NCBI GenBank assembly: GCA_944383915.1 | Contig: CALWRJ010000013.1 | Span: forward strand, 28,743 to 92,742 | Origin: an uncultured Clostridia bacterium | Lineage (GTDB): Bacteria; Bacillota; Clostridia; Christensenellales; UBA1242 | Length of the DNA stretch: 64,000 nucleotides | Direction: 5' to 3' | In this document: positions 1 through 21,862 of the stretch, in pieces | How the letters are laid out: every line of letters starts with the position of its first letter | Position numbering within the stretch: the stretch's first letter is position 1 | Notes under the pieces: generated by a model | The model's input: only the letters and a program-made list of their open reading frames with translations | The model's database searches: none | Told to the model about the DNA's origin: nothing | Translations under genes and position numbers: made by a program

Positions 1-394
1 TTTTTACAGCTTCTAAAACAAGACAGCGCATCATCGAAATGGTATTTAAAGAATCAACTATTTCAATCTCACTATAATCTGATTCGTTTCTATATAAACA
101 AGCATTACCGTAGGTGCCAGCCATTTTAGATGAAATAGGGATAACAAGCATACTATCTCCACTCTTTTTTACTTCCTCAAATCTTTCTATAAACTCAAGG
201 GGGTTAGGCTGGGAAGTGGTAGGCAACTCTTTTGCTTGTAATAACATTTCATAAAATTTATCAGCAGTTATATCTATACCATCTTTATATGTGTCATTGC
301 CAAAATTGACAGATAGGGGAATAACTTCTATATTCAACTTTTTAGCTTCCACTTGTGTAATATCACATGATGAATCTGCTACTATTCTTAACAT
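1..394 (-). CDS. DegV family fatty-acid-binding protein (runs off the window edge)
   Basis: Manual translation MLRIVADSSCDI...IPLSVNFG..TYKDGIDI...LPTTSQPNP...ISSKMAGTY gives DegV motifs; AGGAG RBS upstream. Confidence 0.9.
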   Translation of the reverse strand, partial: MLRIVADSSCDITQVEAKKLNIEVIPLSVNFGNDTYKDGIDITADKFYEMLLQAKELPTTSQPNPLEFIERFEEVKKSGDSMLVIPISSKMAGTYGNACLYRNESDYSEIEIVDSLNTISMMRCLVLEAVK

Positions 395-763
395 AATACT
401 CCTTTAGTCCTTGTTTTTTTAAATTTATATAATTTTACTATGCTATTTTGTTAGTAGTAAAATATAATAAATTTTATACTTTTTTAAAAATTTTGTCAAA
501 TAATTTTAAGGGTGAATAAGGCGTAATTTAAATTACTAAAAAGGTAAAATTAATAAGTTTGCTGTTTTAAATATAAAAATATAATTGAATAATTATACGC
601 AATATGTTTATTACTAAAGTGTAATTTAACAGACTTTATATAAAAATTAAATACTATGCACAAGTACTATGCATAGTATTATGCAATAAATTAATTTATA
701 ATTATAAATAAATATGTATAAAAATAAAATCAAGCTAGAGCCTGATTTTTACTTTTTAAAATA

Positions 764-1975
764 TTATCTATTTAATTCTACATTTGGTTTTTGTGGTTTG
801 CAGGGTTGAGAGCAAACGCATTTGTAGTCTGGAAAATCGCGCCTGTGCTTCCCATTACCATATCTTTCTTTTAGAATATTTGCAAGTTGCTTATCATAAC
901 TTTCTAAACCGTCAAATATCTTATCAGCCATTTCATAAGTTAGATTTTTTATTTCCTCTTGTGCGTGCTCACAACAACGCTCTTTCATTTTCATAACAAA
1001 TGACGCAACGCCAGGTTCGCCATTTTGTTGAATGTCAAGAAGTTGTCCAGACTCTTGTACATTAAACATTCTTGCTTGTGGTACATTATTTAAATTTTTA
1101 ATTTTATCTTGCCACTCGTCTTGTAGTTCCAACTCTTTTACAATAGGAGGTACATAGTATTCAGCACTTTCAGGTATTCCTAGTTTTAAGTATGTTGGAC
1201 GGTGTCTTTGTAATTGCGCTACTGCAACAGCCGAGGCCTTATAGTTTACTTCGTAAGTCGTGCCAAAGTGTTCAGGCCTAATTTTGTTATCCCCAAACAA
1301 ATTAAATGAGCGTTTGTAAGGGTCTGTGAGTTTTGGGTTAATAAGCGGTTCATCTAAAATTGTCATATCATCTAATTGTTTACAAAATTCTTTCATTTCT
1401 GGAATTACTAACTTCTCGTACATATTTAAGTCTTTCTTTGAAATCAAATCTTGCGCCCAACCATATATATAATTAATTTGCCTTAAAGATACTCCGTGGG
1501 TTATGTTTGTTTTTGCATCAACGCCTGTAATATATCGCGCGTTTTCAAGTGCAATTTGTTTTTTCTGTCTTGTTGGACTATTGGGATATTTTAATTCAGC
1601 GTGATTATAAAACTTTTCATAAAAATAATCGAAAACCGCTTTTTCTTTGGGAGGAAGGACTAATTCTTTGTGCCTGCCGCTTGTTTCCTCAGTTGAATAT
1701 GTGTGCAAGTTGTTTAAGTACATACAAAATATTTTTGATACATCATCAATTTCAATAACTAAGTTGTACATATCATAACCACTGTGGTGGCGCTCTAAAA
1801 GCGTTCGTCCTTGTCTTTTTAAGGTTGTTTCAAGAGTTTCTGTAGTCATTTGTTTAAGGGGGTCATTTGAAACACAAGTTGCCATCGTTTTTGCGCAAAA
1901 TTGATAGGGCGTATCTACATTGTTATTTTCATTATGCAGGTAAGATTCAGTTGCGCCAATTAAAGTTATTTTCAT
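764..1975 (-). CDS. thyX: FAD-dependent thymidylate synthase ThyX-like protein, tandem two-domain form
   Basis: ThyX-like motifs ENARYI, SLRQ, AQLQRHR, ERCC..AQEEI; about twice the usual ThyX length. Confidence 0.7.
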   Translation of the reverse strand: MKITLIGATESYLHNENNNVDTPYQFCAKTMATCVSNDPLKQMTTETLETTLKRQGRTLLERHHSGYDMYNLVIEIDDVSKIFCMYLNNLHTYSTEETSGRHKELVLPPKEKAVFDYFYEKFYNHAELKYPNSPTRQKKQIALENARYITGVDAKTNITHGVSLRQINYIYGWAQDLISKKDLNMYEKLVIPEMKEFCKQLDDMTILDEPLINPKLTDPYKRSFNLFGDNKIRPEHFGTTYEVNYKASAVAVAQLQRHRPTYLKLGIPESAEYYVPPIVKELELQDEWQDKIKNLNNVPQARMFNVQESGQLLDIQQNGEPGVASFVMKMKERCCEHAQEEIKNLTYEMADKIFDGLESYDKQLANILKERYGNGKHRRDFPDYKCVCSQPCKPQKPNVELNR

Positions 1976-2089
1976 TTGTCTACTCCTTTAAGTTTTTTGC
2001 AGTATATCAACAAATCAAAAATTTGTCAACGATATTTCGCTATACAAAATTAACAAAAAAAGAAAGGCGAGCAGCCCTTCTTAAAATTT

Positions 2090-2581
2090 CTATTTTTTTG
2101 TTGCAAGATAGCCGAATACCGAAGTAACTAGCATACCAACAACACCAAGCCAGAATCCAATACCACATGAAAGTTGTGTGCTTGCAATTCCAATATCACC
2201 ACTAGCGGCATTACTTGCAAATACAAGACCACAAATTAATGTAGCGATAAATAGCAATAACTCTAAAACTGCAATTATTTTGTTGATTTTTGAAATGTCT
2301 GCTTTAATTACATTACATGCTTTTAGAACATACAAAATCATATAAATAGCAGCCAAAGCCAAGCCAATTACAAACATAACATTTACAGCCATTGAAAGTC
2401 CGTCTGCTTCCGCAAAATCTTGAAATAGGTATATAGATAGACTGCCACCGATACCTATTACTTCACCTGATCTTTCAAAAATACTTAAAAATGTTGGAAA
2501 AATGAGTAAAACAAGCCCTGCAAGTGTTAAAATTCCCCAAATAATGCCAAGCAATGAATTGTTTGATTTTTTCTTTGCCAT
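2090..2581 (-). CDS. Hypothetical 4-TM membrane protein
   Basis: Four hydrophobic segments; GGAGG RBS before ATG at 2581. Confidence 0.75.
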   Translation of the reverse strand: MAKKKSNNSLLGIIWGILTLAGLVLLIFPTFLSIFERSGEVIGIGGSLSIYLFQDFAEADGLSMAVNVMFVIGLALAAIYMILYVLKACNVIKADISKINKIIAVLELLLFIATLICGLVFASNAASGDIGIASTQLSCGIGFWLGVVGMLVTSVFGYLATKK

Positions 2582-2745
2582 AGTAAACCTCCTCGCGTAC
2601 AATGATAAAGTAAAAAAAATTAAAAGTCAAACATATATCATTATTTTGCTCATCTTTAACAAAATTATTATTTTGTTTAAAAATTTTCGTTTTATTGTTT
2701 TAAATATTGTACTTTTAATCATCGACAAGTTTTGCATCTATTATT

Positions 2746-3319
2746 AAAAAGGGTTCCAGCCGGTCCATACCTTGCTTGTGTCTATCCGCGGACTAAAGCC
2801 CTTGCGGTAGACCACTGTGCAAAGCACTACAACATTAAGTTTGGTATCTTTTATTTAAAAGGGTCCCAGCCGGCTTAAAAGCTTGCTTGTTGTCTATCCG
2901 CGGGCTAAAGCCCTTGCGGTAGACTACTGCGCAAGCCACTCATAAAACTACGCATCTACGATGCTAAAAGTATTCGTTCTTTTTTATGCTTATATGCAAA
3001 CATAACGCAATAAAAAAAAGAACGAACCCTTTTTCGCTAAAATGAATTTTAGCGAAGTTTTATTCGTTCTCCTTGATTTGTGGTGGGAGACAATGGACTC
3101 GAACCATCGACCTCAAAGACGAAACTCGCAACCGACAAAACACACATAAAAAGCGAAAAGAAACAAAGGTAATACTCTTGCAAACCGCCCTGCTTTTGCT
3201 CGTTATCGCGTGAGGTCTATCACTTGTAACAAACAAAAAAAGAGCGTCAAACAAGGAGTATTGCTTGTTGTCTATCCGCGGGCAAAGCCCTTGCGGTAGA
3301 CTACTGCGCAAGCCACTCA
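2746..3319 (-). repeat. Three copies of a ~60-nt hairpin repeat (TTGCTTGTTGTCTATCCGCGGGCTAAAGCCCTTGCGGTAGACTACTGCGCAAGCCACT) at ~2772, 2883 and 3261
   Basis: Direct comparison; copies 1 and 2 also share AAAAGGGTYCCAGCCGG (110-bp period). Confidence 0.95.
3064..3115 (-). repeat. Exact 52-bp duplicate of the tRNA-Ile 3' 35 nt plus 17 nt of trailer (att-like)
   Basis: Identical to 3449-3500. Confidence 0.95.
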
Positions 3320-3465
3320 CTTCATCTTACGCAAATGACAAGCATTTGCTAATATCCTTGCTCCTTTGTTCCGCTTATGTGCAAGCACAACGCGAAAACA
3401 AAAAAGCAAGTCTATTTACGCAAAAAAATTTTTTGCGTAAAGATTCGCTCGTTCTCCTTGATTTG

Positions 3466-3542
3466 TGGTGGGAGACAATGGACTCGAACCATCGACCTCA
3501 CGCTTATCAGGCGTGTGCTCTAACCAGCTGAGCTAGCCTCCC
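3466..3542 (-). tRNA. tRNA-Ile(GAU)
   Basis: GGGAGGCTAGCTCAGCTGGTTAGAGCACACGCCTGATAAGCGTGAGGTCGATGGTTCGAGTCCATTGTCTCCCACCA; cloverleaf, encoded CCA. Confidence 0.97.
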
Positions 3543-3605
3543 GAAAATAAAAGGAGTTGAAAAATTAAAGTTTATGGGACTACAAGTTGTCTTATAATCC
3601 CATAA

Positions 3606-3682
3606 TGGTGGAGATGAAGGGATTCGAACCCTTGACCCCCTGCTTGCAAGGCAGGTGCTCTAGCCAGCTGAGCTACACCCCC
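3606..3682 (-). tRNA. tRNA-Ala(UGC)
   Basis: GGGGGTGTAGCTCAGCTGGCTAGAGCACCTGCCTTGCAAGCAGGGGGTCAAGGGTTCGAATCCCTTCATCTCCACCA. Confidence 0.97.
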
Positions 3683-3712
3683 AAGGTGTCATTTTCCAAT
3701 TGTGACTTTTTT

Positions 3713-3741
3713 ATTCTATCATTATTTTTCTATATTGTCAA
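3713..3741 (-). promoter_or_regulatory. Sigma-A promoter for the tRNA-Ala/Ile unit
   Basis: TTGACA-N17-TAGAAT with TG extension on the minus strand. Confidence 0.7.
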
Positions 3742-3977
3742 CAAAAAATTTGTAAAAAATAAAAAAATTTAACTCTATAAAAAAACGCAAAAAAATTATT
3801 TTTATATTCTATATAATATATAATATCGCATTGAAAAGTATTAGTATCAATTTGATAAAATTTGTCATATATAATTTTATTGCCATCTAATTTTTTTAAA
3901 AAAAGCCTTAAATTTAATTGCTAAAATTGTCGATTTATTGTAAAATAAGTTTATACTTTATTAAAAGGAGAGTATTT

Positions 3978-4826
3978 ATGGAAACAAAGAAAGTTTCGAG
4001 CGGTTTTAAAAACTGGCTCAAGGTTTTATGTGTAGCGCTTGCTGCAATTCCGTGTATGTTTTTACTTACTGCTTGTGGCGGTGAAACGATTGAGCAGGAC
4101 GAAGCATTATTAGCACTAGCAGCAGCGCAAACTACTATGGATGCTGACGAGACAAACACTTTTACTATTACTATGGAGCAACGTTTAAATGGTGGTGCAA
4201 GCGGTGTAAATGCTGATATGAATGTTAAAAACACTATCGCCGTTTACACTGATGCTAGCGGAAATGTAACAGCTCGAGTTCAAGCCAACGGTACCGTAAG
4301 GGGCGAGTTAAGTTCTTACATTGACATTGATGCTAATCTTAATGCTGACTACAAGGTTGCTACAATTGATGGCGTAAACTACTTCATTAACGAAAATGAA
4401 AAGACTTATGAAGTGGCAGGTGTGTCTGACTACAGTGATATGATATCATTTGGTAGTTACGCGAGTGCTGTTGACTTTATTAATGCAAGTATGCTAGTTG
4501 ATGCTGAGGGTGTAGATATTGCGACTGATTTAAAGAAAATGGGTGAAAATGATTACAACCTTAGATTTACAATCACAACAACAACTTCTTTGGCTGATGT
4601 TGACACAACTACAACTACTGTTTACTACTACGAAATTAGAGATTCTAAAATTACTAAATTCCAAAACACTGCAACTATGAGTTCAGACGAAGGTAATGCA
4701 ACACAGGAAATGATTCTTACTTTCGACTACACAAATCGTTCAGTTTCTGCTCCAACAAGTATTGAAGGTTACGAGGTAGGTTCAGTTTACTTTGATATGA
4801 GTGACCTCGGCAATATTATGCCTTAA
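3978..4826 (+). CDS. Lipoprotein, unknown function
   Basis: AGGAG RBS; signal peptide with LLTAC lipobox; beta-rich acidic body. Confidence 0.85.
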   Translation: METKKVSSGFKNWLKVLCVALAAIPCMFLLTACGGETIEQDEALLALAAAQTTMDADETNTFTITMEQRLNGGASGVNADMNVKNTIAVYTDASGNVTARVQANGTVRGELSSYIDIDANLNADYKVATIDGVNYFINENEKTYEVAGVSDYSDMISFGSYASAVDFINASMLVDAEGVDIATDLKKMGENDYNLRFTITTTTSLADVDTTTTTVYYYEIRDSKITKFQNTATMSSDEGNATQEMILTFDYTNRSVSAPTSIEGYEVGSVYFDMSDLGNIMP

Positions 4827-4875
4827 ATTTAGTTAGACAGTTTTAGTAATTTAACTTTAAATTTTAGTAAAAATT

Positions 4876-4908
4876 AACAAAGAGCAAAACCACCGCTCTT
4901 TGTTTTTT
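4876..4908 (+). terminator. Intrinsic terminator
   Basis: AACAAAGAGC...GCTCTTTGTT followed by a T run. Confidence 0.7.
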
Positions 4909-5026
4909 ATTTGAAAAATTTGAATAATTAATTTTGTGCTTTTTCGTAATCAAATATTAAAAAAGGCATAAAAAAGAAGCACTTCTATAAAGTACTCTTA
5001 AAATGTACATTATAAAGTGCTACTTT

Positions 5027-5893
5027 TTAGTATTTGCTGTGGAAGGTTAGGGCGACACATTTTCCGCCTACCAAGATTGCATTATTTAGTGAAAGTGGAA
5101 CAAGCCTAATCTCGTTTTCGTTGACTAACTCGCGGAATTTATTATACAGCGCTTGTGCATCTTTGTCCGCATCAAAACTTACAATACTAAAAGTATAATC
5201 TGCGATATTTTGTCCATTTTCTTTTACATTACTATAAAGTTTTGAAACAGCCGAACGGAATGACTTCGTCTTATCAAGTACTTTAAATTTCCCGTTTGTG
5301 TCTATGCTTAAAATAGGCTTCATATTGAGCGATGCACCAGCAAAATTTTCCATAGTAGTATTAAAAACCTGGCTGGCTTTTACGCCGTCTGCGCTATCTA
5401 CCGCTACAATACTTACAAATTTTCCTATTAATGTTTCTGCAAAATCAAGCGCGGCGTCTATATCATTTTCCTTTTTGTATACCAAATGCGCCATTGCCGC
5501 AATCTCACTTGCACCGCGCGAAACGGTTAGGGTGTCGACTAGAATTGCAAGCCTAGCAGGGTATTTTTTGTTTAAGCTTGCAAAAACCTTTTTAATCGTT
5601 GTTCCACCGTCCAAAAACAATTTCGTAGACACCGAAAAATAGACAACATCGTTGCCGGCCTCAAGCTCTTTTTCAAAAAAAGCATACCATTCATCATAAG
5701 TTAACGGGATAATGATGTATTTCTTATCCTTAATATCTAGCGCAATTTTATCCATATCTGCATTTTTAGGGTAGCCTTCAAAGAAAAATTCGCGCTTGCC
5801 TTTTTTAATTTTACTAGGTACAAGATACATACCGCATTTTTTAAGTTCGTCACCGAACATATCAGCGTACGCATCGACAAAGAATTTTACCAT
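5027..5893 (-). CDS. Divergent DegV family protein
   Basis: VVYFSVSTKL, VDTLTVSRG, LNMKPILS and similar DegV-like motifs; 288 aa. Confidence 0.75.
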   Translation of the reverse strand: MVKFFVDAYADMFGDELKKCGMYLVPSKIKKGKREFFFEGYPKNADMDKIALDIKDKKYIIIPLTYDEWYAFFEKELEAGNDVVYFSVSTKLFLDGGTTIKKVFASLNKKYPARLAILVDTLTVSRGASEIAAMAHLVYKKENDIDAALDFAETLIGKFVSIVAVDSADGVKASQVFNTTMENFAGASLNMKPILSIDTNGKFKVLDKTKSFRSAVSKLYSNVKENGQNIADYTFSIVSFDADKDAQALYNKFRELVNENEIRLVPLSLNNAILVGGKCVALTFHSKY

Positions 5894-5956
5894 TTTTTGC
5901 CTCCAATATAAAAATTATATCACGATTAAACGATTTAAGTCAACGAAAAATAGTCA

Positions 5957-6496
5957 TTAGAAAAATTTTGTGTAAACTTTCTCGTTTTGCTTTACTTTTA
6001 CTAGGTAATAGTTAGTTGCGGGGAAGGGGGTGCTATCTAGTTTTATGCCGTTTTGACTGTACTTGGTGTCCAAAAGCCAAGTTGAAACATTGTTAGGCCC
6101 TGCATTGTACGCGCAAATTGCGGTGTCGATGTCGTTAAATTGCTTTATAAGTTTACTTATGTAGGCAGTTCCAATCTCGATATTAAATTCAGGTTCGAAT
6201 AATTTTACTTCATTATATTCTAAATCAATGGTATTTGCGACATATTCGGCAGTGCTCGGCATAATTTGCATTAAACCAACAGCACCCACTTTCGAAACCG
6301 CAGTATTTTTAAAACCACTTTCAGCATTAATTATTCCCGCAATTAACGAGGGAGGAACATCGTATTCATTTGCGTATTTTATAATAATGTCTTTGTATTT
6401 TAGCGGAAAAAAGTACAAAAAAACGCCTATTAAAAGGGCGCAAACAAGCACTATTAAAACGACAAAAATTATCAAACCGCGCGCAATTTTATCCAT
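5957..6496 (-). CDS. Lytic transglycosylase (SLT domain)
   Basis: IINAES, GAVGLMQIMP, AYNAG motifs; N-terminal TM. Confidence 0.92.
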   Translation of the reverse strand: MDKIARGLIIFVVLIVLVCALLIGVFLYFFPLKYKDIIIKYANEYDVPPSLIAGIINAESGFKNTAVSKVGAVGLMQIMPSTAEYVANTIDLEYNEVKLFEPEFNIEIGTAYISKLIKQFNDIDTAICAYNAGPNNVSTWLLDTKYSQNGIKLDSTPFPATNYYLVKVKQNEKVYTKFF

Positions 6497-6567
6497 AATA
6501 ATATTATATATAGTTTAGTAATTTTTCATACAAAAATTTTACTTTAAAATAATTTTTGCGTTTTTGT

Positions 6568-6622
6568 GTTGACAAAGTAAAACTTTTGATTTATAATAGA
6601 TGTAAAGTAGAAATACTTTACA
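6568..6622 (+). promoter_or_regulatory. Sigma-A promoter plus palindrome TGTAAAGTA-GAAA-TACTTTACA upstream of ylxM
   Basis: TTGACA...TATAAT followed by a 22-bp inverted repeat at 6601-6622; candidate autoregulatory site (inference). Confidence 0.6.
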
Positions 6623-6641
6623 GCGATTGCGAGGTGTGATT

Positions 6642-6992
6642 TTGAATATAGAACAACTTGTAAAAGCGAGTGTTTTGCTTGATTTTTATGGTGGTATTCT
6701 TACGGAAAATCAGCGCCGTATTGCTAAAAGTTACCTAGATTACAACGCAAGTTTATCTGAAATTGCGGAGAATTTAGGCACAACTAGGCAAGCGGTTAGT
6801 GATGTACTTCATAGGACACTAAAAAGGCTAAATGAAGTCGAGTCTAAACTTCGGCTGTATGCTAAATACCAGCGAATTTTAAACGAGATTCCAAAAGTAG
6901 CCGAGCAAGTATCAAGTAAAAGTACATTGATTATTAGTGAAGAGTACACTAAATTATTTAAGACTTTGGAGGACGATTATGGCAATGTTTGA
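6642..6992 (+). CDS. ylxM: YlxM family DNA-binding/SRP-associated protein
   Basis: LLDFYG.ILT..Q, SLSEIAE, TRQAV motifs; upstream of ffh; TTG start after GAGGTG. Confidence 0.92.
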   Translation: MNIEQLVKASVLLDFYGGILTENQRRIAKSYLDYNASLSEIAENLGTTRQAVSDVLHRTLKRLNEVESKLRLYAKYQRILNEIPKVAEQVSSKSTLIISEEYTKLFKTLEDDYGNV

Positions 6993-8298
6993 AGGCTTAT
7001 CTCAAAGGCTAAATCATATTTTTAGCAAAATGACTCAACGAGGCAAATTGACAGAACTTGAAATCAACCAAGCGATGCGCGAGATAAGGATTGCGCTACT
7101 TGAGGCTGATGTAAATTATTCTGTTGCTAAAGACTTTATCGCGCGAGTTAGCGAAAAAGCAAAGGGTGAAGAGGTTATGAAAAGCCTAACACCTGGGCAA
7201 CAAGTTATTAAAATTGTTCGTGACGAACTCGTTTCGCTAATGGGCAGTACACAGACAAAACTTGATTTATCAGGCACTCCGCCAGCAGTTATTATGATGT
7301 GCGGACTCCAAGGTGCAGGTAAAACTACTCTTTGTGGCAAACTTGCCGCTTACTTAAAGGGACAGGGTAAAAAAGTTTTGCTTGCCGCGTGCGATATTTA
7401 CCGAAACGCAGCAATCGACCAACTTAAAATCGTAGGTAAAAACGCCAATGTCGAAGTTTTCGAGCGTGGCACACAAGACCCTATTAAAACGGCTACGCAA
7501 GCAATCGAACACGCAAAACAGCAAAATCTTGATGTTGTAATTATCGATACCGCTGGTAGACTTCATATTGATGAAAATATGATGGACGAGTTAAAGCGAA
7601 TGAAAGAGGCTGTTCATCCTAGCGAAATTTTGTTTACGATTGATGCAATGACAGGACAAGACGCGGTGAATGTCGCAAAAGAATTTGACTCGCAACTTGA
7701 TGTTACAGGTATCGTTGTAACCAAACTTGATGGTGATACTCGAGGCGGCGTAGCACTTTCGGTAAAAGCGGTAACAGGCAAACCTATCAAGTTCTGTGGT
7801 GTCGGTGAAAAGCAAGGCGATTTAGAGCCTTTCTATCCCGATAGAATGGCAAACCGTATACTCGGTATGGGCGATGTGCTAACTTTAATAGAAAAAGCAC
7901 AAAACGCCGTTGACGAACAAGAAATGGAGCGTATGCAAAAATCTATTAGAGAAAACACATTCACTCTACAAGATTATTTGGTACAAGTTGAAAGCCTCAA
8001 AAAAATGGGCGACATCAACGCGCTTATGGATATGATACCAGGGCTACGCAATAAATTAGGTGGTGTCAAAATTGACGAAAGCGAGATTGCAAGAAACAAA
8101 GCAATTATCCAATCAATGACACCAGCCGAACGCTTCGACCCTGATATCATAAAAGCCAGCCAGAAAAAGCGAATTGCACAAGGCAGTGGTACAACTATTC
8201 AAGAAGTAAACACGCTACTTAAATCATTTGCTCAAAGTAAGGATATGATGCGTTCGCTCGGTGGCAAAAAGAAAAAAGGTAAATTTCCGTTTTTCTAA
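6979..8298 (+). CDS. ffh: Signal recognition particle protein
   Basis: GLQGAGKTT, DTAGR, TKLDGD, RILGMGD. Confidence 0.98.
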   Translation: MAMFEGLSQRLNHIFSKMTQRGKLTELEINQAMREIRIALLEADVNYSVAKDFIARVSEKAKGEEVMKSLTPGQQVIKIVRDELVSLMGSTQTKLDLSGTPPAVIMMCGLQGAGKTTLCGKLAAYLKGQGKKVLLAACDIYRNAAIDQLKIVGKNANVEVFERGTQDPIKTATQAIEHAKQQNLDVVIIDTAGRLHIDENMMDELKRMKEAVHPSEILFTIDAMTGQDAVNVAKEFDSQLDVTGIVVTKLDGDTRGGVALSVKAVTGKPIKFCGVGEKQGDLEPFYPDRMANRILGMGDVLTLIEKAQNAVDEQEMERMQKSIRENTFTLQDYLVQVESLKKMGDINALMDMIPGLRNKLGGVKIDESEIARNKAIIQSMTPAERFDPDIIKASQKKRIAQGSGTTIQEVNTLLKSFAQSKDMMRSLGGKKKKGKFPFF

Positions 8299-8336
8299 AA
8301 CGAAAATTATATAATTAAATTATTAAGGAGAAAATT

Positions 8337-8714
8337 ATGGCAGTTAAAATTAGACTTGCTCGCTTAGGCGACAAAAAATCACCATTCTACCGTATGGTTG
8401 TTGCAGACTCTCGTTGTGCAAGAAACGGTAAGTTTATCGAAAATTTAGGTACTTATGACCCTCTTAAAAACCCTGCTGAGTTAAAACTCAACAAGGAACG
8501 CGTTCAATATTGGTTGGGCGTTGGTGCTACACCAACAGATACCGCTCGCGAACTTTTAGTTAAAGATGGCATTTTGGCACAAAAACCTTATGTTGCACCT
8601 CGTCCAAAGAAAATGCCACCAGCACCAAAAGCAAAAGCGGAAAATGCAGATGCATCTACTGAAAACGCAGAAGGTGAAGCAAGCGCAGAAACAAGCACAG
8701 AAGCAAGTGCATAA
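8337..8714 (+). CDS. rpsP: 30S ribosomal protein S16 with Pro/Ala/Glu-rich C-terminal extension
   Basis: MAVKIRL.R.G.KK.PFYR.VVADSR. Confidence 0.97.
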
Positions 8715-8817
8715 TTTTAGCCTAAAAGATGGACTTTTTATCTAATTTTTGATAAAATTGTTTTAGGCTCAAATATATTCGAGAGCCGAACGCTCTCGTT
8801 TTTTGTAGGAGAAGGTA

Positions 8818-9321
8818 ATGAAAGTAACACTTGGTAAAATTCTAAAACCGCAGGGAATAAAAGGAGAAGTAAAGGTTTTGCCTTTGTCAAATCCCGATTT
8901 TTTTAAAAAAATTTCGCTTGTAACGATAAATAACAAAGAAGCGAGTATCGAAAGCGCAAGCGTTCGTGACGGCTTTGTGTATATCAAATTTGATTGCATT
9001 AACGATAGAAATACAGCCGAGAGTTATCGAGATGCCGAGATTTGCGCGGAAAAAGATGCTTTGCCTGATTTGGAAAACGGTCAATTTTATTATGACGATT
9101 TAATTGGCTGTCAAGTATATTATCCAAATGGCGAACTAATCGGCGAAATTATAGACATTCAAAATTATGGCAATGCTGATATTTTTGAAATTCACAAAGG
9201 TTTTAGCAATATTTTGTGCCCGTATATAGACGGAGTGTTTACAGAAATCGATACAAAGAAAAAACGCATTGTTGTAGACGAAAAGCGCTACCGTGAGGTT
9301 ACAGAATATGATGAAAATTGA
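8818..9321 (+). CDS. rimM: 16S rRNA processing protein RimM
   Basis: GKILKPQGIKGEVKV, FYYDDLIG; synteny. Confidence 0.95.
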   Translation: MKVTLGKILKPQGIKGEVKVLPLSNPDFFKKISLVTINNKEASIESASVRDGFVYIKFDCINDRNTAESYRDAEICAEKDALPDLENGQFYYDDLIGCQVYYPNGELIGEIIDIQNYGNADIFEIHKGFSNILCPYIDGVFTEIDTKKKRIVVDEKRYREVTEYDEN

Positions 9322-9982
9322 TATTTTGACACTTTTTCCAGATAGTTTTGCGCCAATATTTCAAAGTATTCTTGGGCGTGCTTGCAAGTCTGGTGCGCTC
9401 GAAATTAATATTTTAAATATCCGCGACTTTTCAACAGATAAGCACAAAAAATGCGATGACGAGATTTTTGGGGGCGGAAATGGTATGCTTATGACACCGC
9501 AACCACTTTTTGACGCAATAGAAAGTGTTTTAGATGACGATGCGTATGTTATTTATCTTTCTCCAAAAGGACAAACATTTTCACAAAAAAAAGCAAAAGA
9601 ACTAGCAACTTACAAACACTTAATTTTAATTTGCGGGCATTATGAAGGTATTGACCAGCGCGTAATTGATAAATTTGTAAATTTAGAATTAAGCATCGGC
9701 GATTATGTCTTGACTGGTGGGGAACTGCCTGCTATGGTTGTGGTTGATACAGTTGCAAGGTTAGTACCTAATGTTTTAGGAAATGAAAATTCCGCCGTTG
9801 ATGACACTTTCGAAAATGACTTACTTGAATATCCACAATATACGCGCCCAGCAGATTTTAGGGGGATGAAAGTGCCGGAAGTGTTATTGAGCGGAAATCA
9901 TCAAGAAATAAAAAAATGGCGCAAAGCGCAAAGCGAAGCACTCACAAAAAAACGCCGACCAGATTTAATTAAAAAGGAGTAA
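9308..9982 (+). CDS. trmD: tRNA (guanine-N1)-methyltransferase
   Basis: LICGHYEGIDQR, SIGDYVLTGGE, LEYPQYTRP. Confidence 0.98.
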   Translation: MMKIDILTLFPDSFAPIFQSILGRACKSGALEINILNIRDFSTDKHKKCDDEIFGGGNGMLMTPQPLFDAIESVLDDDAYVIYLSPKGQTFSQKKAKELATYKHLILICGHYEGIDQRVIDKFVNLELSIGDYVLTGGELPAMVVVDTVARLVPNVLGNENSAVDDTFENDLLEYPQYTRPADFRGMKVPEVLLSGNHQEIKKWRKAQSEALTKKRRPDLIKKE

Positions 9983-9985
9983 ATT

Positions 9986-10852
9986 ATGTTTATAGAAAAA
10001 TATGGTTCAAGTTTTGGTCAGTTACTAAACGATTTATTTTTAGATAACAAAATAGGTAAGTACGATTATTTTAAAGTATATGTAGTAGAAGAGTACAAAT
10101 CATTTAGAAATGGAAAAACATATTATGAATTACAACTTATACCAAAAAAAGAAAGTACTGAAACAGTAGCAAGGAAGGATGTTAGGCGTGCCTTTATTAA
10201 TGATTTCGAAGTTGAGCCCAAATTGCCAAGTTCAAAGACGCGCAGTACCGATTTTAATGAGCAAGATATTGAAATCGCAAATAGAAATTATTTAAAAGTA
10301 ATGTTGCTTTTAAATTATAACGAGCGCGATATTTATGCCGAAAACTACATTCGCTACCAAATTTTTAAAAATCAAAATAGATTAAAGGGCTTAACTACCG
10401 ATGAGCGCAAAAAAGAAGTGGCAAAAATAAAAAAAGAAGCCAAGTCAAAGTTGGAAACGTCTTTGAGTGATTTAGGAAAAGAAGTACTCCTTACTTCGTA
10501 TTTTGGACATAGATGCGATATTAATATTCCAATAGAAGACAACATTATCTATAAAGCGGTAGAGGACAAAGTCGGGGATGTTCTTAAATATTATGGGTCG
10601 AGTAGATATAATCTTGATAAAAAAATCGAAATTATTAAAAAAGAGCGCATTCTAACCCCATGGAGTAATGGCGCTTCCGAAATGTTTGATAGGTCTAAAA
10701 TAATATATGATAGAATCGAAAAAGGTTGTGAAATCTCAGGGCAAAACCTACAAGCAATTTTAGATGATGTTATAAAATCTGATGTTATAAAAATTACACC
10801 AAAAAAGCGTACTGTAAACAAGCCAAGAAAAATTGCAGAGCGCACAGACTAG
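9986..10852 (+). CDS. Orphan hypothetical protein inside the trmD-rbgA operon
   Basis: 288-aa ORF with AGGAG RBS; no recognised motif. Confidence 0.75.
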   Translation: MFIEKYGSSFGQLLNDLFLDNKIGKYDYFKVYVVEEYKSFRNGKTYYELQLIPKKESTETVARKDVRRAFINDFEVEPKLPSSKTRSTDFNEQDIEIANRNYLKVMLLLNYNERDIYAENYIRYQIFKNQNRLKGLTTDERKKEVAKIKKEAKSKLETSLSDLGKEVLLTSYFGHRCDINIPIEDNIIYKAVEDKVGDVLKYYGSSRYNLDKKIEIIKKERILTPWSNGASEMFDRSKIIYDRIEKGCEISGQNLQAILDDVIKSDVIKITPKKRTVNKPRKIAERTD

Positions 10853-10860
10853 GAGATAAA

Positions 10861-11709
10861 ATGAAAATTCAGTGGTTTCCAGGGCATATGACAAAAGCCC
10901 TTCGCGAAATGGAGCAAAATATCCGCCTTGTAGACCTAGTTATTTATGTTTTAGATGCTCGCGCGCCTTTTAGTTGTCTAAATCCCGTCTTTACCGAAGT
11001 AATAGGGGACAAGCCTATTATTTATGTACTAAATAAGACCGACCTTGCAGATAAAGACGAAACTAAAAAATGGATGCAGTATTTTACAAGCAAAAATTCA
11101 CTTTCCGTTCCGCTCGTTTCTACAATGACAAACGCAAGTAAAGCAGTGGTAAGCGCTATGGAAAAATTGCTTGCGCCTAAATTAGAGCGTAACCTCCAAA
11201 AAGGCATAACAATGCCGTTGCGCGCAATGGTTATTGGCGTTCCAAATTGCGGAAAAAGCACCTTGATAAATAATCTATGTGGCAAATACAAGGCAATTAC
11301 GGGTGATAGGCCAAGCGTTACGCGTGCGACTCAATGGGTAAAAATTGCAGGAAATATCGAAGTTTTAGACACCCCAGGCACTCTTTGGCCCGCGTTCGAT
11401 AATGACGAAATCGCACACAACCTAGCATATATTAATGCAATAAAAGACGATGTTGTTGATGTCGCCGAGTTATCCCTAGATTTTATCGCAAAAATGCTTG
11501 AAATCAACAAACCAGCATTTTTAGAAAGATATAATTTAGAGTTTGATGCCGAACTTCGCCCTGTCGATTATCTAACCCAAATTTGCGAAAATAGGAAGTT
11601 TTTTATAAAGGGTGGCGAATTAGATTACGAGCGCGGGGCTAGGGCAGTGCTAGACGATTTTAGAAAAGGTCGACTAGGCGAAATAACTTTGGATAAGTGC
11701 CCAAAATGA
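10861..11709 (+). CDS. rbgA: Ribosome biogenesis GTPase RbgA/YlqF
   Basis: IQWFPGHM, DARAP, NKTDL, GVPNCGKS, DTPG. Confidence 0.97.
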   Translation: MKIQWFPGHMTKALREMEQNIRLVDLVIYVLDARAPFSCLNPVFTEVIGDKPIIYVLNKTDLADKDETKKWMQYFTSKNSLSVPLVSTMTNASKAVVSAMEKLLAPKLERNLQKGITMPLRAMVIGVPNCGKSTLINNLCGKYKAITGDRPSVTRATQWVKIAGNIEVLDTPGTLWPAFDNDEIAHNLAYINAIKDDVVDVAELSLDFIAKMLEINKPAFLERYNLEFDAELRPVDYLTQICENRKFFIKGGELDYERGARAVLDDFRKGRLGEITLDKCPK

Positions 11710-12050
11710 GAAAAAACCCGCATATTCTAGGCGAAAAAGGCGAGATAGAGGCTCTAAAATATTTAAAAAAGCATAAATATAAAATTTTAGAGAAAAACTA
11801 TACTTGTCCTATCGGCGAAGTCGATATAATCGCTATGCACAATAAAATGCTAGTCTTTATCGAAGTAAAAACTCGCGCTTCGTTAAAATTTGGACGCCCT
11901 AGCGAAGCAGTAGACGAGCGAAAACAAATGAAACTAAAAAATTTAGCTCTATTCTATCAAAGAGTAAAAAAGAAACACGATATCCCTGTTCGATTCGATG
12001 TTGTCGAAGTGTTAGATGACGAAATTAATCTAATAGTAGGAGCGTTTTAA
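11706..12050 (+). CDS. yraN: YraN/UPF0102 family endonuclease-like protein
   Basis: GEVDII...LVFIEVKTR...RFDVV. Confidence 0.92.
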   Translation: MRKNPHILGEKGEIEALKYLKKHKYKILEKNYTCPIGEVDIIAMHNKMLVFIEVKTRASLKFGRPSEAVDERKQMKLKNLALFYQRVKKKHDIPVRFDVVEVLDDEINLIVGAF

Positions 12051-12350
12051 GGCGCTACGCTAAACGCTTCGCTTCAATTTTGAATTGTGAATTTTGAATT
12101 TTGAATTAAGGCTAAAATAACTAATAATTAGCAATTAGCAGTTAGCAGTTATGGTTGGGTATATTCAAAGAGCATTACACTCGCCGAAGGCGTAATGAGC
12201 CTGCGGGGGCTCTATCCCCGCCGCACCGCGCGTAGCGGAAAAAGTTAATGCGAAGCATTTTGTTTTTTGTGCTTTAATGTTTTCACGAAGTGGAAATTTT
12301 AAAGCCTAAAAAGTAACAAAATAAAAAATTGAAAATTTGAGCATTTGCGA
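12051..12350. repeat. Intergenic element with heptamer repeats (AATTTTG)n and (ARTTAGC)n plus clustered small hairpins
   Basis: Visible 7-mer periodicity; ~38-nt segment matches 41918-41956 in reverse complement. Confidence 0.7.
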
Positions 12351-12424
12351 GTAAAATTATTTAAAAAACTTATCACTTTTGTATTGCATTTCATAAAAAT
12401 TTATGGTATCATACTACTATGACT

Positions 12425-12472
12425 TCGGGCGGTCCGCTGTGAAACGGAGTAAATATTCACAAGAACACTCGA
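12425..12472 (+). ncRNA. L19 ribosomal protein leader
   Basis: Stem with GTCCGCTG...GAAC core directly upstream of rplS, resembling the Firmicute L19 leader. Confidence 0.75.
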
Positions 12473-12499
12473 TTAATCTTGTTAAGGAGGTATTAAGTC

Positions 12500-12841
12500 A
12501 TGAACATTATTGCAACTTTGGAAAAAGAAGGCCTTAAAGAAAATGTTAGCGACTTCAACATCGGTGACACCGTTAGAGTGTATGTAAAAGTTGTTGAAGG
12601 CGACAAAGAGCGTTTACAGGCTTATGAAGGTGTAGTAATCGCGCGTAAAAACGGAAGTATTCGCGAGACATTTACTGTTCGCCGTATCAGTTTCGGTGTC
12701 GGCGTTGAAAGAACATTCCCTGTACACTCTCCGCGTATCGACCGCGTAGAAGTGGTTCGCAAAGGTAAAGTTCGTAGAGCAAAACTTTACTATGTCCGTA
12801 AACTCAGCGGTAAGCGTGCTAAGATTAAAGAAAACATCTAA
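12500..12841 (+). CDS. rplS: 50S ribosomal protein L19
   Basis: [26 protein letters not shown]. Confidence 0.98.
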
Positions 12842-12859
12842 TTTTATTAAATATAAATT

Positions 12860-12883
12860 GAGCCATATTTTCGGCTCTTTTTT
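12860..12883 (+). terminator. rplS terminator
   Basis: GAGCC...GGCTC followed by a T run. Confidence 0.65.
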
Positions 12884-13103
12884 GTTTTTATAATAGGGCA
12901 TACAAAATGCTTAACTCTTATTATTTTATTTAAAAACAATTTGACCGCAACCATATTTTAAGGGCGAAAAACGCTATCAATTTTAATTAGTAACAAAGTT
13001 TATATTGTCCTAATAGTTTTAAAACACATAAGGGCATAATTTATCTACTAAATATTGTTTATCGTATTCTTAATTAAAAAAGTATAGAGCGCAACTTCTA
13101 TAC

Positions 13104-13349
13104 TTATTTTTTTATATTCATTTCAATTTTTAACTTTTCTCTTTGCTCAATGTTATCAATTTCAAGCACTTCGTCACTGGCAACATCAAACAAAACACAA
13201 AGTTTTTGAAAAGCATCAAGGCTAGGTTCAGCACGCCCGCGCTCCCAATCACTTATAGTGTATATTTTAACATTTAAATAATCAGCAACTTGCTTTTGAG
13301 ACAAATTCGCTTCTTGTCTTAACCTTTTTAAATTTTCACCGAATTTCAT
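13104..13349 (-). CDS. Small XRE-family HTH regulator
   Basis: LKRLR...LSQKQVA...ISDWERGRAEP. Confidence 0.9.
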   Translation of the reverse strand: MKFGENLKRLRQEANLSQKQVADYLNVKIYTISDWERGRAEPSLDAFQKLCVLFDVASDEVLEIDNIEQREKLKIEMNIKK

Positions 13350-13468
13350 ACTCTTATTTTATACTAAAATAAAAATAAAAAAGGCGTTTTAGTAAAAATT
13401 ACTAAAAATAGTAAAATTTACTTGATTTTTTAAAAATATTTTGTTAAATTAATAATGATGTAGGGGAA

Positions 13469-13678
13469 TTACTCATCACCACCAAATAAATAATCAACCG
13501 AAACATCAAAGAATTGCGATAATTTGTAGATAACTTCAACATTAGGAGCGCGCAAACCTCTTTCCCAAAGCGAAACAGTATCTTGTGTAGTATTAAAATT
13601 TTTAGCGAATTCGTCTTGCGTGATATTTCTTTCTTTTCGCAGTTCTCGAATGCGCTTTCCCATAATTTCAACTATCAT
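13469..13678 (-). CDS. Small XRE-family HTH regulator
   Basis: RIRELR...TQDEFA...VSLWERGLRAP...FDVSVDYL; start probably 13678 (or 13663). Confidence 0.9.
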   Translation of the reverse strand: MIVEIMGKRIRELRKERNITQDEFAKNFNTTQDTVSLWERGLRAPNVEVIYKLSQFFDVSVDYLFGGDE

Positions 13679-20481: not shown

Positions 20482-21495
20482 ATGTGGTGGATTTGGCTCT
20501 TTTTTGCTGTATCTTTAATTATTATTATCTACATTTCAAATAAAATTGGAGGTGTAGTAGATGCGTTGGACAAAAAAACTAAATTGTCCGGCGCTTTTTT
20601 AGGTGCAGTTTTATTAGCAGCCGTCACCAGTTTACCCGAGCTTGTTACAAGTACCACCACCGCCGCAATGCAAGAGCCTGAAATGACACTTGGCAATATT
20701 TTAGGCACAAATCTATTTGATATAGTAATTATCGGCATAATTTTAGTTATATTTTTTAATAAAATCAAGCAAAGAAAAGTCTGTAAGTCTAATGTTATTT
20801 TTGGAATATTTACCGTTATAATAAGTGCCATTATTTTATTATGTATGGTGTTTGGTATGGAGATTGTTATTCCATATGTAAATATTAATATTATCAGTTT
20901 GATAATTTTTGCTATTTATTTGTTTGCGTTATTTATTATGCGTAAAGTAAATGACCCGCAAGATGACGATACATTAAGTGTAGGTGATACTCAAAATAAA
21001 TATGAAGCAATTTCTGTAAGAAAACTTGCGTGGCTGTTTACGACTCTTTCAATTGCGCTTGTGGCTGTGTCAATTATTATTACATTTATGGCAGAATACT
21101 TGGCTGATGTGTACGGAATGAATAAGGGACTTGCGGGGGCTTTGTTTGTAGGTGTACCAACCAGTTTTCCAGAATTAGTATCTTGCATTGCTTTGGTTCG
21201 CTATGGTAATTTTGATGCAGCATATGGAAATATTGTGGGTTCGTGCTTGTTTAATTATGTGGTTATAGGAATCGCTGATATCGCGTTTATTTCGGGTACT
21301 GTCTTTACTTCAAGTACAAGCAATATTATAATGTCTGCGTGCCTAATGGTAGAAGCAACACTACTACTTGTTTTAGGCGCAATTAAAAACAAACGCACAA
21401 TTATAGGTACAACAACATCATTTTTAGTTTCAATCGGCATTTTAATGATTGATATCTATGTTGTTTGGCTAGTTTTAACTACATTTCTAGCATAA
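20482..21495 (+). CDS. Sodium:calcium antiporter family protein
   Basis: Two alpha repeats TSLPE/TSFPE with GNILG/GNIVGS. Confidence 0.9.
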   Translation: MWWIWLFFAVSLIIIIYISNKIGGVVDALDKKTKLSGAFLGAVLLAAVTSLPELVTSTTTAAMQEPEMTLGNILGTNLFDIVIIGIILVIFFNKIKQRKVCKSNVIFGIFTVIISAIILLCMVFGMEIVIPYVNINIISLIIFAIYLFALFIMRKVNDPQDDDTLSVGDTQNKYEAISVRKLAWLFTTLSIALVAVSIIITFMAEYLADVYGMNKGLAGALFVGVPTSFPELVSCIALVRYGNFDAAYGNIVGSCLFNYVVIGIADIAFISGTVFTSSTSNIIMSACLMVEATLLLVLGAIKNKRTIIGTTTSFLVSIGILMIDIYVVWLVLTTFLA

Positions 21496-21581
21496 TTTAT
21501 TTAATTTAAAAATGTTATAAATCATATTAAAAATTATAGTTAAAAAACATTTTTGAAATTTAATAAAATGGCTTAAATCTA

Positions 21582-21610
21582 TTGACACAGACTAATTTTA
21601 TTGGTATAAT
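21582..21610 (+). promoter_or_regulatory. Sigma-A promoter of the str operon
   Basis: TTGACA-N17-TATAAT. Confidence 0.85.
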
Positions 21611-21619
21611 ACAAATCGT

Positions 21620-21862
21620 TACAAATGATTTTGTAGCGTTTTTCTATACTCTCTAGTATAGGATGAAAGTATGTGTATATACTTTCTTAAAACTATTACA
21701 AAATCCAGAATATCTGGTCGTGGCAAACGGGTAATATGTGGTGTGTTATCTGTTTGCCAGCAGGACGCTATTTGCCTAGCATAATTGTTCATTCCACAAA
21801 TGTTTAGGTTACTTTTACGCGCCAAGTCGCATCAAAAATTTAGGGTTGAATGTTGCGACATC
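21620..21862 (+). ncRNA. Structured 5' leader of rpsL (candidate cis-regulatory RNA)
   Basis: Multiple nested inverted repeats between promoter and RBS. Confidence 0.5.

Follow-up and report, generated by a model that had tools for sequence, protein, structure and literature searches.

Genomic islands that integrate at tRNA genes and their gene-less derivatives, the cis-mobilizable elements (CIMEs) of streptococci, accrete in tandem at one tRNA gene and include small forms devoid of recombination genes. Attachment sites that fold are known from integrons, whose attC is made up of an outer inverse-core arm, an unpaired spacer, an inner stem, a variable loop, the returning strand of the inner stem, a second spacer and the core arm, and from CTXphi, in which attP(+) consists of two inverted target-like copies ca. 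100 nt apart that fold within a single strand into a duplex with an unpaired center. Among the integrative mobile elements exploiting Xer (IMEX), miniature satellites exist. The IS110/IS1111 elements have separate target- and donor-binding loops and a very short shared core (2 nt). Here, we analyzed a stretch of 64,000 nt from an uncultured Clostridia bacterium of the order Christensenellales (contig CALWRJ010000013.1, positions 28,743 to 92,742; this whole stretch is referred to as the window, and coordinates without a contig or locus name are its own), in which an insertion in a tRNA-Ile gene carries, besides a copy of the tRNA end, a short segment antisense to the same gene. Units of similar layout were found at other tRNA genes of this genome and of its relatives, and they resemble self-folding attachment sites of a kind not described so far.

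The insertion at tRNA-Ile and its hairpin

The intact tRNA-Ile(GAT) gene (3466 to 3542, on the minus strand like all the features of this locus) is followed downstream by a second copy of its own 3' end. An exact 52-nt direct repeat (3064 to 3115, identical to 3449 to 3500) comprises the last 35 nt of the gene (3466 to 3500) and a 17-nt trailer, and a looser search extends it to 61 nt at 93% identity. The 333 nt between the two copies (3116 to 3448) contain no open reading frame (ORF) of note and no promoter-like site on the minus strand. The order of the locus, i.e., intact tRNA-Ile, inserted body, displaced 3' end and older flank, is the one expected when a tRNA gene has received an insertion in its 3' part. 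The 385-bp insertion supplies a new 3' end to tRNA-Ile (the first repeat copy presumably came with it), and the original end now lies 385 bp downstream; the gene stays intact because the insertion brought its own copy of the last 35 nt plus the trailer. The arrangement is not an assembly artifact, since contigs from public chicken-gut DNA cross the downstream repeat copy (X1 record 3, 2913 to 3313; X5 record 26, 3014 to 3256; X3 record 19, 3017 to 3180), from runs that may include the sample behind the genome assembly.

Within this body, the segment at 3208 to 3220, GCGTGAGGTCTAT, has the reverse complement ATAGACCTCACGC, which is one base off the sequence ATCGACCTCACGC found at 3491 to 3503. 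The original prediction had pointed out this 12/13 inverted match, together with the 52-bp duplication whose end it spans (GACCTCA|CGC), and both were confirmed by direct reading of the window. It had also called the segment antisense to the anticodon-stem/variable region of the tRNA, and the placement of tRNA-Ile(GAT) bears this out: on the tRNA-sense strand, the 13 bases are complementary to the 3' strand of the anticodon stem, the variable loop and the first bases of the T stem. The match straddles the inner edge of the repeat. Ten of its 13 positions fall within the repeat, so that the segment has the same complementarity to the displaced copy (3106 to 3115), and beyond the repeat there are only three bases, CGC. 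A chance inverted match in an ordinary duplication might be suspected from a single 13-mer with three bases outside the repeat, but we consider it very improbable, as a match of at least 12/13 anywhere in the tRNA was reached by only 3 of 1,000 dinucleotide-preserving shuffles of the insert (3116 to 3449, 334 nt), and the position of the segment is conserved, within a covarying hairpin, across 12 homologous units.

An imperfect hairpin under selection, here named type A, has this segment as its outer 5' arm and the displaced tRNA end as its 3' arm. In the window it lies at the far end of the insertion, and the last ca. 135 nt of the body contain the segment. Reading along the tRNA-sense strand, the arm (3208 to 3220, with its cis partner at 3106 to 3115) is followed by the 5' strand of a conserved internal stem (GATAA-CGA-GCAA, 3196 to 3207), a variable loop (3132 to 3195) and the 3' strand of the internal stem (TTGC-GAG-TTTCGTC, 3118 to 3131), in which GAG faces CGA as a tandem G.A. 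The 12 type A units that we recovered belong to seven genomes of the genus, and all are located downstream of tRNA-Ile; in the search of 40 relatives, matches to the module or the unit came from the same genus only, and the other families matched the tRNA alone. Scanning with a loose regular expression for the type A motifs proved useless, as chance matches were too numerous. The consensus reads ...AGTGATAGACC-NNN-CGCG-AGAA-CGA-GCAA, a variable stretch, TTGC-GAG-TTTCTC-NNNN and the partial tRNA, and in 11 of the 12 units the two conserved motifs are 69 to 75 nt apart.

When a 19-pair structure was laid on the alignment of the 12 units, 78.3% of the cells were paired, versus 31 to 42% with slid partners, and both-sided changes were found at 11 of the 19 pairs, versus 4.7 ± 1.4 in shuffles (none of 500 reached the observed number). 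The inner stem was paired in 85% of the cells and the stem of arm and partial tRNA in 69%, while the three pairs next to the breakpoint were mostly unpaired in cis (5/10, 5/10 and 8/11 cells). The CGA facing GAG was kept in 11 of the 12 units. Given this covariation and the maintained CGA/GAG mismatch, the type A stems are under selection. The original prediction had placed the segment inside a local stem, AATACTCTTG (3174 to 3183, within the variable loop) with CAAGGAGTATT (3251 to 3261, its 5' arm on the tRNA-sense strand). That stem exists and is used in the RNA minimum-free-energy fold, where it competes with the hairpin of arm and tRNA end in this same unit.

The rest of the locus is composed of repeated noncoding modules. 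Upstream, a promoter-like site (TTGACA-17-TAGAAT with a TG, 3713 to 3741, a consensus match only) precedes the pair formed by tRNA-Ala(TGC) (3606 to 3682) and tRNA-Ile. The insertion body begins with a terminator-like hairpin (about 3415 to 3438) and a "trailer module" that includes a conserved hairpin (3262 to 3314), the third copy of this hairpin in the window; its apical stem differs between copies with the pairing kept, as judged by eye. The first ca. 200 nt of the body reappear beside tRNA-Pro(CGG) on contig C10, with ca. 95% identity over 209 nt. The older 3' flank (2736 to 3063) is another trailer module, with a terminator-like hairpin (3019 to 3070) and two module hairpins (2881 to 2937 and 2771 to 2827), and it recurs in the genome after tRNA-Lys(CTT), after tRNA-Pro(AGG) and at one contig end. 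As a family, the trailer modules are 200 to 300 nt long, follow several different tRNA genes and contain the trailer CAAGTCAAGGAGAACGA, a terminator-like hairpin and a hairpin of ca. 57 nt; the copies are 90 to 96% alike, the apical stem of the ca. 57-nt hairpin varies with its pairing kept, and no Rfam family matched them. They were located at 2736 to 3063 and 3262 to 3448 of the window and at C3:39151-39378, C10:12153-12354, C18:17754-17885, C22:36168-36352 and C23:148416-148731. Inserted units can carry a trailer module.

Units at other tRNA genes and the origin of their arms

A census of the 41 tRNA genes of the genome (96.8% complete, 1.18 Mb) detected a downstream partial 3' copy at 10 of them, and a copy and/or an antisense arm at 13. 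Exact downstream copies of at least 15 nt follow the tRNA genes for Ile, Ser-GGA, Gly-GCC, Gly-TCC, Phe, Glu-CTC, Met, Leu-CAG and Leu-TAG, the copy at Ser-TGA being 15/16; an arm with no scored copy was found at Tyr (at a contig end), Arg-TCT and Asn. The matches in upstream control windows were between neighboring tRNA genes. One of these control windows, on contig C10 about 1,300 to 1,450 nt upstream of the tRNA-Arg(ACG) at 115054, holds unexplained exact matches to that tRNA, 17 nt in sense and 16 nt in antisense.

Besides type A, at least three further, unrelated backbones (B, C and D) are found at about 12 more of the 41 tRNA genes. Type B units start with the antisense of the acceptor/T-stem 3' strand, followed by one or two hairpins, the antisense of the T-stem 5' strand and a short loop, and continue with a sense copy of the T-stem 5' strand, a conserved 95-nt unit ("X") ending in CTTGCTAC and the partial tRNA from the T loop onward. 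They were found at Ser-GGA in the genome of the window, at Met, Lys and three Leu genes in G008, at Pro in G003 and, in another genus of the family (G224), again at Ser-GGA. The sense mimic of the T-stem 5' strand follows the antisense half from the left of the breakpoint and covaries with the tRNA, being GAGGG at Ser-GGA in the genome of the window and GGCGG in the other genus. In the X unit, the Pa helix is 88.9% paired, with compensatory changes at four of five pairs. We had also considered this unit as an intron-like insertion into the T loop (at an attR in G008), which would be better explained by a deletion between the T stem of the tRNA and the in-unit mimic. Type C has a contiguous arm, e.g., GGGACTC|GAAC, and a conserved stem-loop, ending in ...CGGAGC| (Arg-TCT, Gly-TCC and Phe in the genome of the window, Ile in G007 and Leu-CAA in G001). 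Type D carries the antisense of the whole T arm, with the breakpoint at the border between T stem and acceptor (Leu-CAG, Leu-TAG, Ser-TGA and Tyr in the genome of the window). Each of the long antisense pieces of types B and D finds its complement within the unit, provided on the right side by the displaced tRNA end and on the left by the sense mimic.

A pattern scan with the type B end motif at the level of the family gave 2 of 201 genomes, in a sample that omitted G003 and G008, both of which carry the motif. Among genome contigs the same motif gave 21 loci, the real ones from three metagenome-assembled genomes labeled "uncultured Clostridia bacterium" only; its 10 loci in viral contigs were all within phage ORFs, and its 58 loci in metagenome contigs were all chance matches in coding DNA. 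Other repeats surround some of these units. Blocks of AATTAGC-type heptads, direct and inverted, lie beside the type D units at tRNA-Leu(TAG) (C2, about 20690 to 21007) and tRNA-Leu(CAG) (C10, about 21440 to 21800). A further family, recognizable by the motifs ...AGATCCTTCG... and ...GCTCAGGATGAC..., is present in several copies close to tRNA arrays, on the downstream side of the tRNA units (loci L004, L007 and L025, from G005 and G012); Rfam gave no match for it in L007.

The arm takes its sequence from the target and shifts along with the breakpoint, which answers the question, raised along with the original prediction, of whether this segment changes with each cognate tRNA. Against the cognate tRNA-Ile, the type A arm scores 12/13 in the window, 12/13 and 11/13 in G003, 10/13 in unit 1 of G001 and twice 9/13 in G012, the type A units of G008 being degenerate. 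Unit 2 of G001 has the type A backbone with its breakpoint in the T loop (|AGTCCATTG), and there the arm matches that place at 13/13, with bases on both sides of the breakpoint; in G013 the arm reads CCGACC where its tRNA has GGTCGG. As all the type A units are at tRNA-Ile, retargeting to other tRNAs is outside the reach of this backbone, and it is the other backbones, at tRNAs for Ser, Gly, Met, Lys, Leu, Phe, Arg, Asn and Pro, whose arms match the T arm of their own cognates. A rank test by single local alignments could not separate cognate from other tRNAs, the T loops being shared, and was replaced by one that chains exact matches. With it, seven tRNAs scored at least 16, and the cognate ranked first of 41 in six of them and was tied in the seventh. 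We then took 35 distinct units from 129 tRNA genes (those of the genome plus the fetched loci), having removed duplicates, any unit shorter than 40 nt or containing N, and copies with no exact 12-nt seed close to the 3' end. Sixteen of them had antisense matches to the left and to the right of the breakpoint, versus 1/35 among reversed controls, and the antisense score left of the breakpoint exceeded all 40 shuffles in 11.

An arm that matches both sides of the breakpoint and changes with the target is what would be expected if the unit were transcribed and its arm paired with the tRNA gene or the tRNA, directing an RNA-guided recombinase or a ribozyme-like activity, in the logic of bridge RNAs or of the exon- and intron-binding sites (EBS/IBS) of group II introns, as the original prediction had suggested. 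The 3 to 4 nt past the repeat in types A and C (ACGC, GAAC), which have no partner in cis, do match the tRNA, the arms split around hairpins resemble the two-sided guide loops of bridge RNAs, and the location of the units downstream of a strong promoter-like tRNA site makes read-through possible. Nevertheless, such a guide in trans is doubtful. In the 15 nt left of the breakpoint of type A units, the antisense score is not above shuffles, except in G011, and the beyond-repeat bases of type A do not exceed shuffles, their ACGC staying unchanged where tRNA-Ile has GCGG or GCGA (G008 and G004). The long arms are paired in cis, each of those of types B and D having its partner within its own unit, and this pairing would compete with pairing in trans. 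Terminator-like hairpins stand ahead of many units, and the direct repeats, of 15 to 52 nt, are unlike the 2-nt core of IS110. No IS110 transposase (PF01548) was detected in the genome of the window or in any of 17 genomes of the genus, while control genomes matched; the genome of the window also gave no reverse transcriptase (PF00078), TnpB, serine recombinase or CRESS-type Rep, the last being present in 2 of the 17 genomes. Rfam models matched nothing but the tRNAs in positions 1 to 8000 of the window (E up to 1) and nothing relevant in nine related loci (E up to 5), group II introns included.

Pairing at the RNA level could also serve a housekeeping purpose, with the arm clamping the displaced fragment, or the tRNA 3' end in read-through transcripts, as a terminator, a processing signal or a neutralizer of a potentially harmful tRNA 3' half. 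The units are located in tRNA transcription units, the duplex of arm and partial tRNA is conserved, and at Gly-GCC in the genome of the window and at Leu-TAG in G008 the arm has its partner in the 3' end of the intact tRNA upstream and is followed by a T run, as in a terminator. In type A, however, the T run precedes the arm, and housekeeping does not explain why there is a split at the breakpoint, why the T-stem 5' strand has a sense mimic, why the backbone hairpins are conserved and why four unrelated backbones have a common layout. We give this explanation a small probability only.

The most serious competitor, although itself unlikely, is that the units are passive scars, i.e., functionless by-products of aberrant recombination (exchange in the wrong orientation on the near-palindromic TTCGAA of the T loop, template switching or the decay of stacked islands), with arrays expanded by unequal crossing-over. 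The tRNA genes are crowded with remnants of islands and phages, real integrases exist in the relatives, the core of the T loop is palindromic, and many units are degenerate (type A in G008, the truncated ones at Ser-GGA and Asn). Moreover, recombination of short identical segments with low specificity is known for the integrase of pTN3, an archaeal tyrosine recombinase of Thermococcales that acts in this way at tRNA genes and, in that study, needs about 104 bp or more (PMC5495485). Scars would not be expected to maintain their stems by compensatory changes, to keep the CGA/GAG mismatch or the motif spacing in 11 of 12 type A units, or to show the same ordered architecture in another genus of the family (G224).

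Proposed recombination of folded units

We favor, tentatively, the view that the units are fold-back attachment sites, built on the principle of the integron attC and CTXphi attP(+), rather than guide RNAs acting in trans, and we place it ahead of passive scars, then of the guide, of RNA housekeeping and, last, of chance. The preference for folding comes from the selected stems, from the arm that follows target and breakpoint, and from the in-unit complements of types B and D: a guide pairing in trans would not be kept paired in cis, whereas a self-folding strand would. Under the fold-back interpretation, the 13 bases would be the target-matching arm of a miniature, gene-less integrative unit. 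At its far end, an imperfect hairpin of ca. 135 nt has an outer stem formed by the antisense arm and the displaced tRNA copy and, going inward, a small unpaired bubble at the breakpoint, the conserved inner stem with the tandem G.A and a variable loop of ca. 65 nt. The other backbones arrive at a similar form with an antisense T arm that one or two hairpins interrupt at the breakpoint and whose left half pairs with the sense mimic in the unit. The single-stranded unit would thereby fold back and rebuild the target tRNA site in duplex form, leaving a bubble at the crossover, and a recombinase provided in trans would then recombine this folded strand, which we infer to be the substrate, with the tRNA gene. 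The most likely candidate would be the tyrosine recombinase of a co-resident island or phage, or else a XerS-like enzyme of the host.

Several traits of the loci are consistent with movement by site-specific recombination. The direct repeats end, by eye, at CCA or a few bases past it. Tandem arrays are found at Ile in G003 (two units), at Gly-GCC in the genome of the window (2.2 copies with a period of 182 nt) and at Ser in G224 (two units). One cassette of the tRNA-Leu(TAG) array of G008 carries a gene of 121 aa (PF05635, 23S rRNA intervening-sequence protein or Avd-like four-helix bundle; locus L058, 3245 to 3610). The tRNA-Leu(CAA) gene is a plain empty site in the genome of the window and is accompanied by two units and an integrase gene in G001.

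The search for a partner enzyme (IS110, IS200/IS605, reverse transcriptase or tyrosine recombinase), which had been proposed with the original prediction, gave for the genome of the window one XerS-like recombinase and one unrelated Y1 pseudogene, neither of them linked to the units. The former, the sole tyrosine recombinase, has XerS as its best match (197 bits, under the 267-bit cut-off) and reaches 64 bits with the integron-integrase model, whose cut-off is 265. The Y1 transposase (PF01797) is present only as a pseudogene, on contig C7, in an IS200-like element (C7:1772-2320) that carries subterminal hairpins, its transposase frame being interrupted by two TAA codons; lying ca. 170 nt downstream of tRNA-Ser(CGA), it was dropped as a partner, being an ordinary element with no partial tRNA. 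Integrases beyond the Xer-like gene were found in all five relatives checked, one of them adjoining an array and none with the backbones of the units.

Two further candidates were rejected as parts of larger elements. A reverse transcriptase of 457 aa (PF00078) beside a trailer module in G002 (locus L163, G002:C67, positions 2460 to 3833) is cargo of an island in tRNA-Met. It lies at the right end of this island, whose crossover was in the anticodon loop of the tRNA, and is followed by the displaced end of tRNA-Met and then by a trailer module. The CRESS-type Rep is part of an inovirus-like prophage of 10.6 kb in tRNA-Leu(AAG) of G008 (locus L069, G008:C6:17000-30600, positions 2925 to 13560), which also codes for a tyrosine integrase, a helix-turn-helix repressor and Zot (PF05707), the Rep itself matching PF02407 and PF00910. 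At its right junction, the displaced tRNA end carries the 95-nt type B unit within the T loop.

A number of observations speak against fold-back sites. No enzyme is linked to the units, and the integrases near some arrays (on contig 8 of G001, one of 319 aa) have no demonstrated relation to them. The only complete prophage examined, that of G008, crosses over in the anticodon loop, with GTGTCAA arm repeats and no antisense arm. The targets vary in sequence among tRNAs, which an ordinary sequence-specific tyrosine recombinase would not tolerate. In the window, the RNA minimum-free-energy fold of the unit prefers the local stem of 3174 to 3183 with 3251 to 3261 over the pairing of arm and tRNA (−56.9 kcal/mol, z −2.3), and the DNA fold, which does use the latter, has a z of only −1.1. 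The arm at tRNA-Ile of the window scores 10 in the chained exact-match test and ranks 27th of 41, indistinguishable from its score with non-cognate tRNAs. Mismatches in the type A stems are balanced (G.T in 12 cells versus A.C in 16), so the strand that folds cannot be named. The loci of relatives were fetched for their matches to queries, so the counts over the 35 units are biased and do not represent a random sample. Neither excised circles nor empty-site reads nor joints skipping a unit were found in the chicken-gut contigs, the only material screened and one that cannot show rare forms, and the tandem arrays could have grown by unequal crossing-over between repeats, with no integration.

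The most far-reaching version would be a natural, programmable integration module, in which the arm split at the crossover and its in-unit partner pick the tRNA gene and a recombinase devoid of sequence preference (XerS-like or an unrecognized protein) makes the exchange. We regard this variant as a long shot; if correct, it would amount to a guide- or homology-programmed tyrosine recombination independent of IS110, with the tRNA genes as a platform for integron-like arrays. If the fold-back sites do work as such, the self-folding single-strand principle of attC and CTXphi would extend to tRNA targets, the stacking of gene-less cassettes at tRNA genes would be explained, and a recombinase that reads structure or homology, and not a fixed sequence, would be of interest for retargetable DNA insertion. 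Even inert units would represent a lineage-specific and unusually orderly decay of tRNA loci.

Comparison with known systems

Small insertions with a copied tRNA end are well known as relics left by islands and phages. The units described here are not plain relics, since they have a selected fold-back structure made from an antisense copy of the occupied site, and they occur, on at least four unrelated backbones, at about one-third of the tRNA genes of a 1.18-Mb genome with no dedicated integrase. In the literature searched, which left most subscription journals outside its coverage, we found no account of antisense arms in mini-elements that insert into tRNA genes and no paper describing an attP hairpin of the IMEX type for tRNA targets.

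As with CIMEs and tRNA islands, the insertion lies in the tRNA 3' part, the tRNA end is restored, and the former end persists as a direct repeat. Unlike them, the units are far smaller (about 110 to 420 bp) and carry an antisense copy of the target, which pairs with the displaced tRNA end in a covarying hairpin, and neither a cognate integrase nor a parent element was found for them in the genomes analyzed. An enzyme of the pTN3 type would explain how units with different tRNA copies share one mechanism, although none was identified here.

Group II introns, with their EBS/IBS pairing, differ in that no ribozyme domain was matched in Rfam and PF00078 is absent from the genome of the window. With IS200/IS605 the units share single-strand hairpins near the ends and a short base-pairing that chooses the site of cleavage or the target, but IS200/IS605 insert without duplicating the target and depend on a Y1 transposase, whereas the units are flanked by direct repeats. 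The bridge RNA (seekRNA) of IS110/IS1111 is likewise a noncoding structured segment, in which the loops match the target left and right of the crossover and hairpins separate the two halves; however, no DEDD transposase was found (0/17 genomes), both halves of the arm match one strand and are paired in cis, and the direct repeats are long.

Besides the CIMEs, the nearest parallels are the sites that fold. The integron attC and the type A hairpin resemble each other in layout only, both having two helices and a bubble, with a near-invariant tandem G.A and covariation in type A; in both, the parts come in the same order, the sequence varies while the structure is kept, mismatches are conserved, the crossover is at the edge of the outer stem, and the cassettes form arrays, some with one small gene. 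The outer arm is here a segment of tRNA and not GTTRRRY, the arrays start at tRNA genes and not at attI, and the genome of the window has no integron integrase, the integron models remaining far below their cut-offs. With CTXphi and IMEX, the units have in common the inverted att copies that fold with an unpaired center, the absence of a recombinase of their own and a host that has a Xer enzyme. They differ in their targets, which are not dif, where IMEX integrate by means of host XerC/D or XerS, but tRNA genes that vary from unit to unit.

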